Source of the DNA: Curvularia clavata | Taxonomy: Eukaryota | DNA: 64,000 nt | Assembly (NCBI GenBank): GCA_023920165.1 | Contig: CP089275.1 | Location: forward strand, 4,278,001 to 4,342,000 | Direction of reading: 5' to 3' | Part shown: positions 33,571 to 34,847 of the stretch, in pieces | Layout of the letters: each line of letters opens with the position of its first letter | Numbering within the stretch: position 1 is the first letter of the stretch | Notes under the pieces: model-generated | Seen by the model: only the letters and a program-made list of their open reading frames with translations | What the model was told of the DNA's origin: nothing | The model's database searches: none | Position numbers and translations under genes: made by a program

Positions 33571-34847
33571 CTACTCTTTGCCCCCGAGATACCTGTAGAC
33601 AACCGAGAAGTCCTTTCCTTTGCACTTCTCGTCCTGCTCGACAGCATCGTACAAAGCTCGTGCTGGCTCACCCAGGGCAAGCTTGACGTCCGCTTCAGCG
33701 GCTGCTTTAAGGGCAAGCTTCAGGTCCTTACTCGCAAGTCCAATTCCAAACCCTCCTTCATATCCTCGGCTGGCAGGCGAGCCCTCAATCACTCCAGGCA
33801 CAGGATTGTTGACTTCACTCGGCCAGCATTTCCCCGTCGCCGTGTTGATCATTCCAGCTAGAGCCTTTGGGTCGAGTCCCCATTTAACGCCCATGCTCAT
33901 GGCTTCTGCAGTAGCAATGTTGTTGAGGGCAAGCAGGTAATTGTTTGCAAGCTTGCCTTTGAGACCTGCTCCTGGTCCGCCAAGGTGAACTACTCTCCGA
34001 CCCATCAAAGACAACACCTTGGTTGCACTGTCAACTGCTTCTGGCGGGGCACCAATCATGAACGTGAGCGTGCCTGCCTGTGCACCAACAACACCACCTG
34101 ACATGGGCGCATCGACAAACTTCCCTTGACCGGTAGAGTGCGCAGCTTGTGCCACCTCACCAGAGGTCATGGGGTCAATAGTTGAGCAGTCAATGAAGAA
34201 GCGCTCTTTGTTGACGGTGCCCTCGGAGAGTAGTGTCGGGGGCTCTAGCATCTCCTTAAAGACAGCCTTGACATGCTTGGGCTCCGGCAACGAAGTGATG
34301 ATTGTTTCCTGCAACATCGTTAATGCTCTGTGTCTGACAACCATGGCAAGTAACGTTTGGTGAAGATGAAAGCATCAGAGGATTGGCTATAATTTTTGCG
34401 TAATCAGAATAAGGGCCACGAATGGCCCCCAACTTAGATCATGGATAGAACAATTAATTCATCACAAGGCGACGTGAATAGGAAAAGAAGAACTGGGTTA
34501 CTTACGGCATTCTCAGCAACCTCTCGAACATTTTTGGCAACCTGAACTCCCTGTGGATGCTCCTCAAGGAATTGCTTGGTTGCCGCAGTGTTGACGTCGT
34601 GTATAAACAGCGTATCTTCAGCTGGGATCTTTGCTCGAAGGTTTTTCGCCATGGGATAACCTTGCAGGAAGTTAGCAACATGCAGTCATGTGAGTAAACG
34701 ATGATACTGACCCATGCGTCCCAGGCCAATAAATCCCCATGTTGCCTGCCAGTTCCGGGAGCTTGAGAAGCATCTCCGAGTAGTCTGGTGTGCCGCAGTT
34801 GATACTGTTCTTCGCACCGGCGAAGCAAACACTGAGAATGTCCGCAT
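33571..34847 (-). CDS. Mitochondrial 3-hydroxyisobutyrate dehydrogenase, 3 exons
   Basis: ATG at 34847 with presequence MRTFSVFASPVRRTVST..RRCFSSS. GFIGLGRMGYPMAKNL after removing intron 34711-34661; second intron 34505-34309. Motifs DAPMSGG, GTLTFM, KLANN and NNPVPG. Confidence 0.93.
34372..34468 (-). ncRNA. Intronic box C/D snoRNA with two LSU rRNA guide sequences
   Basis: On the - strand, in order: box C GUGAUGA (34465-34459), guide AUUGUUCUAUC, D' AUGA, GGGCCA-UUCG-UGGCCC hairpin, C'-like UGAUUA, guide UUAUAGCCAAUCCU, box D CUGA (34378-34375). Same sense as the host gene, inside its 197-nt intron. Confidence 0.85.

Follow-up and report, generated by a model that had tools for sequence, protein, structure and literature searches.

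The window analysed here is a 64,000-nucleotide stretch of a Curvularia clavata contig (CP089275.1). On its minus strand lies a gene for 3-hydroxyisobutyrate dehydrogenase (HIBADH), which is modelled in three exons and encodes a 342-aa protein without interruption. Exon 3 alone matches the NCBIfam profile TIGR01692 (HIBADH) with 246.5 bits over profile positions 54-287 of 288, along with the Pfam families NAD_binding_2 and NAD_binding_11, and the protein-atlas clusters nearest to the host protein come from Ascomycota. The second intron of this gene measures 197 nt compared with only 51 nt for the first, in keeping with the initial annotation, which had singled it out as unusually long. It contains a box C/D snoRNA (Table 1), the elements of which start 40 nt from the 5' splice site and end 64 nt from the 3' splice site.

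Table 1. The dehydrogenase gene and the elements of the snoRNA in its second intron, with positions numbered from the first nucleotide of the window
Feature	Position	Strand	Basis and remarks
Host exon 1	34847-34712	(-)	Gene model
Host exon 2	34506..34660	(-)	Ends at codon 97
Intron 2, host of the snoRNA	34309..34505	(-)	197 nt; ends GUAAGU...CAG
Host exon 3	33571..34308	(-)	From codon 98; stop codon included in the end coordinate
Box C/D snoRNA, family Nc CD40 / CD_40	~34373..34469	(-)	~97 nt, ends approximate
C box GUGAUGA	34459..34465	(-)	Sequence and family alignment
D' guide AUUGUUCUAUC	34444..34454	(-)	Antisense to LSU GAUAGAACAAU; 34447, the fifth nt before D', pairs with the target A
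D' box AUGA	34439..34442	(-)	Sequence and family alignment; first base non-consensus
Internal element UCUAAGUUGG	34429..34438	(-)	Antisense to LSU CCAACUUAGA, 3' strand of the ES27/H63 basal helix
Internal hairpin GGGGGCCA/UUCG/UGGCCCUU	34411..34430	(-)	Between D' and C'; UUCG loop
C' box (C)UGAUUA	34401..34407	(-)	Sequence and family alignment
D guide AUUAUAGCCAAUCCU	34379..34393	(-)	Core AGCCAAUCCU (34388-34379) antisense to LSU AGGAUUGGCU; target U pairs with 34383
D box CUGA	34375..34378	(-)	Sequence

The RNA has RUGAUGA near its 5' end and CUGA near its 3' end, with the boxes in the order C - D' - C' - D, and its guides are antisense to rRNA over at least 10 nt, ending 1-2 nt upstream of D or D'. 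Four nucleotides separate the C box from the D' guide AUUGUUCUAUC, and a single spacer C stands between this guide and D'. The internal hairpin is made of 6 Watson-Crick and 2 G-U pairs (-12.7 kcal/mol, z -4.56). By eye, the window copy has no evident terminal stem, the stretches of 4-6 nt next to its C and D boxes showing no convincing pairing, and some relatives have 3-4 bp there. The coordinates and description previously given for this RNA, with C, D' (AUGA), the UUCG hairpin, C' and D in that order, proved accurate, and its interpretation as a double-guide box C/D snoRNA holds in terms of anatomy, the two rRNA complementarities and the D+5 arithmetic.

Searches against Rfam 15 returned no match at the gathering level, either in the window or in 15 loci of the family described below. 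With an E-value threshold, only chance-level matches were obtained in the window, such as snoZ103 (18.9 bits, for a gathering threshold of 44). Membership in snR40 (RF01201) was rejected as well, the score being 13.8 bits for a threshold of 50 (E = 3.6), with the boxes alone aligning. On the plus strand, opposite the snoRNA (34352-34424), there is a weak match to ceN28, a C. elegans snoRNA (24.5 bits for a threshold of 70, E = 0.0056), which we regard as a chance match, favoured by the resemblance of the guide complement to rRNA in the sense orientation.

Targets of the two guides in the large subunit rRNA

The genome_contigs collection was scanned for the complements of the two guides (GATAGAACAAT-N(40-70)-AGGATTGGCT). 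Most of the matches (25/37) are one conserved rDNA stretch with a span of 65 nt (..TTGATAGAACAATGTAG..AAGGATTGGCTCTAAGG.. / ..UUGAUAGAACAAUGUAG..AAGGAUUGGCUCUAAGG..), the remaining 12 being unrelated chance matches. All of the rDNA loci that were tested (4/4) match Rfam LSU_rRNA_eukarya; the two LSU sequences cited in the initial annotation do exist. The records in which the 25 rDNA matches sit are titled as bacteria or archaea and represent eukaryotic contamination, the four tested being eukaryotic LSU. Two of these loci, L012 and L015, are two rDNA copies on one contig, and the LSU gene of L012 holds a group I intron.

Against the LSU rDNA, the D' guide forms 11 contiguous bp, while the D guide forms 10 bp followed by one mismatch and 3 more bp, which bears out the pairings over 11 nt and at 13 of 14 positions proposed earlier. 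The nucleotide selected by the D' guide is the A in GAUA*GAAC, and that selected by the D guide is the first U in AGGAU*UGG, located 56 nt downstream. These are the D+5 sites of the initial annotation, which had placed them about 55 nt apart. Counting from the 5' end of the LSU in four rDNA loci, the A falls at 1858-1880 and the U at 1914-1936, the G of GAUAG being 1855-1877 nt from that end by arithmetic. Yeast snR62, which guides U1888, gives an offset of +22 from the N. crassa numbering, in which the site of its homologue is U1866. The two sites would accordingly be A1881 and U1937 in yeast, and neither of these domain IV LSU positions is known to be methylated in budding yeast. The earlier estimate of ~A1881 and ~U1937 fits the offsets of Liu 2009 as well as the LSU 5'-end counts (4 loci).

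The D guide site corresponds to about U1915 in N. crassa (56 nt past A1859) and is absent from the target table of Liu 2009. The initial annotation knew of no methylation at either site in budding yeast; in N. crassa, the A site had already been predicted as a target of Nc CD28, the D guide of which is directed to 26S-A1859 in GAUA*GAACAAUGUA (Liu 2009, PMC2780460). The D guide of Nc CD28 thus targets the same A as the D' guide of the window RNA (GAUA*GAAC), with 14 bp. Nc CD28 is nevertheless a different RNA, being 78 nt long, having its A1859 guide at D rather than D', directing its other guide to A1845 and carrying no UCUAAGUUGG element. Where both exist, CD28 and a CD40-type D' guide would be redundant for the A site.

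The same rRNA stretch is the target of snR62 / U34 (SNORD34), the homologue of which in N. crassa, Nc CD22, pairs on ACAAU*GUAGAUAAG at 26S-Um1866 (Liu 2009, PMC2780460); the U that it selects follows the A site at a distance of 7 nt. Membership of the window RNA in snR62 / U34 was rejected, as its D' guide selects the A 7 nt upstream of the U in ACAAU*GUAG and there is no Rfam match; the two RNAs also differ in sequence. Identity of the D guide site with that of snR62 / U34 is likewise ruled out by the offsets of the Liu table and the LSU positions. The available part of a study of C. thermophilum 26S rRNA reports 52 Nm and a hyper-modified region around nt 1900 (H62) (PMC12723226), which speaks neither for nor against the two predicted sites.

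As a control for chance complementarity, we ran a snoscan-like scan of the whole window against an 8.6-kb rRNA panel and repeated it on 20 shuffles of the window. The window contains 6 RTGATGA..CTGA candidates, and the only one with an anchored guide match of at least 10 nt is the intron 2 snoRNA, in which both guides match. In the shuffles, the average number of candidates was 0.15 with a single guide match and 0.0 with both.

Family membership and the host intron in other fungi

Nc CD40 (GenBank EU780963) is an intronic RNA of 107 nt from chromosome IV of N. crassa, known from a cDNA clone and a northern blot (Liu 2009, PMC2780460). The window RNA and Nc CD40 share a common order of elements, consisting of a C box, a guide containing UUGUUC, AUGA, UCUAAGUUGGG with a hairpin, UGAUUA and ..AAGCCAAUCCU-CUGA, a likeness that we judged by eye against the published sequence. 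In both RNAs the D guide ends in AGCCAAUCCU-CUGA, and both are intronic. They differ in the D' guide, which is degenerate in Nc CD40 (UUUGUUCCAAUUC) and is AUUGUUCUAUC in the window, with 11 bp to rRNA. The initial annotation had cautioned that the RNA might belong to a described Neurospora or Aspergillus family, and rightly so, as architecture and motifs are those of Nc CD40, listed as CD_40 (Nc_CD_40) in "The fungal snoRNAome" (Canzler 2018), where the part of the article available to us gives it as not detected in Eurotiomycetes (PMC5824354). The window RNA is therefore a previously unannotated member of CD_40, a described Pezizomycotina family, rather than of a new one.

We scanned metagenomes with a pattern built from motifs common to the window and Nc CD40 (CTAAGTTGG, a gap, then GCCAATCCTCTGA) and obtained at least 113 loci forming one coherent family. 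The family is thus widespread, which corrects the earlier suggestion of a lineage-specific guide. Full-length alignment was carried out on 95 unique sequences (the window and 94 among the matches listed). The D box, GCCAATCCT in the D guide and all but one of the 10 nt that make up the internal element (9/10) were forced by the pattern, so the conservation of the D guide and of these 9/10 nt is ascertained by the search and is not independent evidence. What the pattern left free is nonetheless strictly conserved among the matches listed: GATGA of the C box, TGA of the D' box and TGAT of the C' box are invariant in all 95 unique sequences, as is the A before GCCAATCCT (the A preceding GCC). The D' box reads ATGA in 91/92 unique cores and the C' box NTGATT in 92/95 sequences. 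Boxes are thus conserved in the introns of relatives. Again among the matches listed, a hairpin stem of at least 5 bp (5-12 bp) occurs in 95/95 sequences in 87 different versions (mean z -3.1), with compensatory changes at 4 of the 6 consensus pairs, and the unforced 5' U of the internal element is found in 88/92 unique cores.

The host gene is conserved along with the RNA. Tblastn with the window protein detected HIBADH on both sides of the snoRNA and on the same strand in 89/113 loci, and at least one flanking match in 109/113, among the matches listed; most of the others are short on flanking DNA. The upstream match stops near residue 97 and the downstream one begins at residue 98. Identity to the window protein in the segment of exons 1 and 2 ranges from 34 to 88% among the matches listed, and the RNA has therefore been kept in the same intron while its host protein diverged widely. 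The description of the host as a metabolic gene is confirmed, and by the 89/113 loci among the matches listed this host is conserved. Of the relatives among the matches listed, L044 is nearest to the window, its host protein being 93% identical over 297 columns and its snoRNA nearly the same, and L067 groups with both on a tree of the host protein. A full-text literature search combining snoRNA, the HIBADH gene and intron retrieved no paper on a conserved host position, and the text of Liu 2009 and its 7 supplements name no host genes, giving only 'intron, chromosome IV' for CD40 (PMC2780460).

Since its place within the host gene is strictly conserved, the sequence might instead be a conserved intronic element that acts on the splicing or expression of this gene and yields no stable RNA. 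We regard this as extremely improbable, given the full set of box C/D motifs with rRNA-antisense guides at canonical spacing and the N. crassa homologue, obtained as a cDNA clone and detected by northern blot (PMC2780460). This homologue is the evidence for a stable RNA, which the window copy would produce by analogy. Of 21 listed sequencing runs, all of them contig assemblies and none of this strain, a single one contains at least half of the sampled words, and four (X1, X2, X5 and X16) were compared with the snoRNA. Contigs of run X2 had no match to the snoRNA, while X1 and X16 each had one contig with 1 difference, ending inside or at the edge of the snoRNA. Run X5, a soil metatranscriptome, includes a 155-nt contig of a relative (9 differences) that extends from about 4 nt beyond 34468 to 44 nt past the D box. 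In the same run, 31-mers over 34427-34454 (D' guide, D' box and UCUAAG) reach a depth of 70-90, compared with 3.8 for the longer contig, which would fit many related fungi expressing members with the same stretch, although contig depth is a poor measure. The X5 contigs give at most a weak hint that relatives express the RNA.

Turnover of the D' guide

Contrary to the boxes, the D' guide is variable. Among the matches listed, GTTCTATC-N-D' occurs in 56/95 unique sequences, 55/95 have at least 9 contiguous bp with the same A at D'+5, and the guide is mismatched or replaced in 39/95. These non-canonical guides comprise 7 with one mismatch, 14 that are degenerate in the manner of Neurospora (TGTTCC and similar), 12 with TTTTCC and 6 others. 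The guide classes were placed on a quick maximum-likelihood tree of the host protein, built from the 67 rows that have 200 or more filled columns, sequence-poor loci being left out. The canonical guide is spread across both main branches of this tree, the other forms being scattered within them. The number of changes between guide classes is at least about 16, while shuffled labels give a mean of 24.7 and never so low a number (0/200).

Both halves of the tree include D' guides that place the A at D'+5, so this guide is probably ancestral, and the simplest reading is that of an ancestral guide for the A site that decayed or was replaced several times. With the guide mismatched or replaced in 39/95 sequences, through at least about 16 class changes, methylation of the A may be dispensable or covered by a CD28-type RNA. 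N. crassa has the decayed form of the D' guide and possesses CD28 for the same A.

The 12 TTTTCC members (L046, L071, L147, L055, L064, L109, L066, L095, L080, L093, L122 and L134) have, in place of the A-site guide, a longer spacer from C to D' in which TTTTCC is conserved. This motif is complementary to GGAAAA in ..CGGGAAAAGGAUUGG.., which immediately precedes the D guide target, and in some members the match reaches 8-9 nt (TCCTTTTCC, for example). The motif lies too far from D' for a methylation guide, and it may provide the D site with another form of additional base-pairing. At the position of GGAAAA, the rDNA loci differ among themselves, having GGGAAAAGG or GGGATAAGG.

A third complementarity at the base of ES27

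Besides the two guides there is a third conserved rRNA complementarity, missed by the initial annotation, in the element UCUAAGUUGG between D' and the hairpin. Its target CCAACUUAGAA is found 144-148 nt downstream of AGGAUUGGCU in 8/25 rDNA loci and UCAACUUAGAA in 3 more, the others being too short or different. In minimum-free-energy folds of 9 rDNA loci, CCAACUUAGAA is the 3' strand of a helix whose 5' strand, UCUAAG-GGUUG, is situated immediately 3' of the D guide site. We take this helix to be the base of the ES27/H63 arm. Being almost a copy of the rRNA's own 5' strand, the snoRNA element could bind the 3' strand at the same time as the D guide occupies the sequence immediately upstream. 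The support for conservation of UCUAAGUUGG consists of its unforced 5' U, together with the agreement of the window and N. crassa that preceded the search.

A different role was given to this part of the RNA by Liu 2009, who took UUCUAAGUUGG as a guide immediately followed by a D' box (in N. crassa CCCA), with 26S-A2062 as its target. An 11-bp duplex for this target is drawn in Additional file 4 of that study (PMC2780460), and the complementary rRNA is present, as described above, in 8 rDNA loci. What lies downstream of the element is, however, the 5' arm of the hairpin, with 87 different sequences in 95 among the matches listed; this arm being so variable, no box is conserved downstream of UUCUAAGUUGG, and the strictly conserved AUGA stands upstream of the element instead. 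Furthermore, the portion of Canzler 2018 available to us states that falsely detected D' boxes underlay three of the Liu targets, without specifying in the main text which ones (PMC5824354). Methylation of A2062 by this RNA thus appears very unlikely, and the arrangement in Table 1 looks like a correction of the D' box and target assignment for CD_40, made by sequence comparison.

The most likely role of UCUAAGUUGG is to provide additional pairing with the opposite strand of the helix at the base of ES27/H63. In the part of van Nues 2011 available to us, extra pairing with rRNA, mainly by sequences between D' and C', is reported to raise methylation 2-5 fold and may help open structured targets (PMC3116282). 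Box C/D snoRNAs presented there, snR70, snR75 and snR76 among others, resemble the window RNA in having a conserved rRNA-antisense element between D' and C' that is followed by no box. In these RNAs, the extra pairing is directly beside the methylation site, whereas that of the window RNA is ~147 nt away, on the opposite strand of the adjacent helix.

Overall, the locus is probably best explained as the local copy of Nc CD40 / CD_40, released from intron 2 of the HIBADH gene and guiding two LSU methylations with the aid of UCUAAGUUGG. The snoRNA would be freed from the spliced intron of the dehydrogenase pre-mRNA, and the resulting snoRNP would pair with domain IV of the pre-LSU rRNA and direct two ribose methylations. 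One would be placed by the D' guide on the A of GAUA*GAAC (N. crassa 26S-A1859, ~A1881 in yeast) and the other by the D guide on the first U of AGGAU*UGG (~U1915 in N. crassa, ~U1937 in yeast). Meanwhile, UCUAAGUUGG would dock the snoRNP on the opposite strand of ES27/H63 and help open the helix beside the D guide site. Anatomy, family membership, conservation and complementarities are shown here, whereas both methylations and the role of the third element are inferred. Some features argue against this explanation, namely a D guide core of just 10 bp (with 3 more past the mismatch), a D' box reading AUGA rather than CUGA and, by eye, no evident terminal stem in this copy, along with the fact that Liu 2009 gave CD40 no D guide target, though 10/0 matches were accepted elsewhere in that study (PMC2780460).

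All three complementarities are contained in a span of ~210 nt of the rRNA, and two of them involve the opposite strands of a single helix. The RNA could accordingly be seen as chiefly a chaperone, with methylation minor or absent, that holds the base of ES27 open during pre-60S folding by pairing simultaneously with the strand of H61, the 5' strand of H62/H63 and the 3' strand of H63. The short core of the D guide (10 bp) and the repeated loss of the D' guide while the rest is kept would suit such a function. Like methylation guides, however, both guides stop exactly 1-2 nt short of D or D'. In addition, C' and D' are strictly conserved as a pair among the matches listed, and extra pairing is known, from the part of van Nues 2011 at hand, to aid methylation and not to replace it (PMC3116282). 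We consider a mainly chaperoning RNA unlikely. Likewise unlikely, and speculative, is a three-point clamp on the base of ES27 (H61, H62/H63 5' strand and H63 3' strand) that would time closure of the ES27 stem in 60S assembly, its supply being tied, through its fixed place in the host, to transcription of a valine-catabolism gene.

Taken together, the copy of CD_40 in C. clavata is a solid but fairly ordinary find, the methylations being predictions. What this analysis adds is the family assignment, the correction of box and target, the conserved host intron, the turnover of the D' guide and the match to both strands of the ES27 base. The papers searched contain no report of strict conservation of host gene and intron across a wide range of fungi, nor of an antisense match to both ES27-base strands. 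Neither overturns anything, and a modest experimental follow-up of either the host-intron conservation or the ES27 antisense match might be worthwhile. Two domain IV positions of the LSU rRNA would be methylated in many filamentous ascomycetes if the predictions are right.
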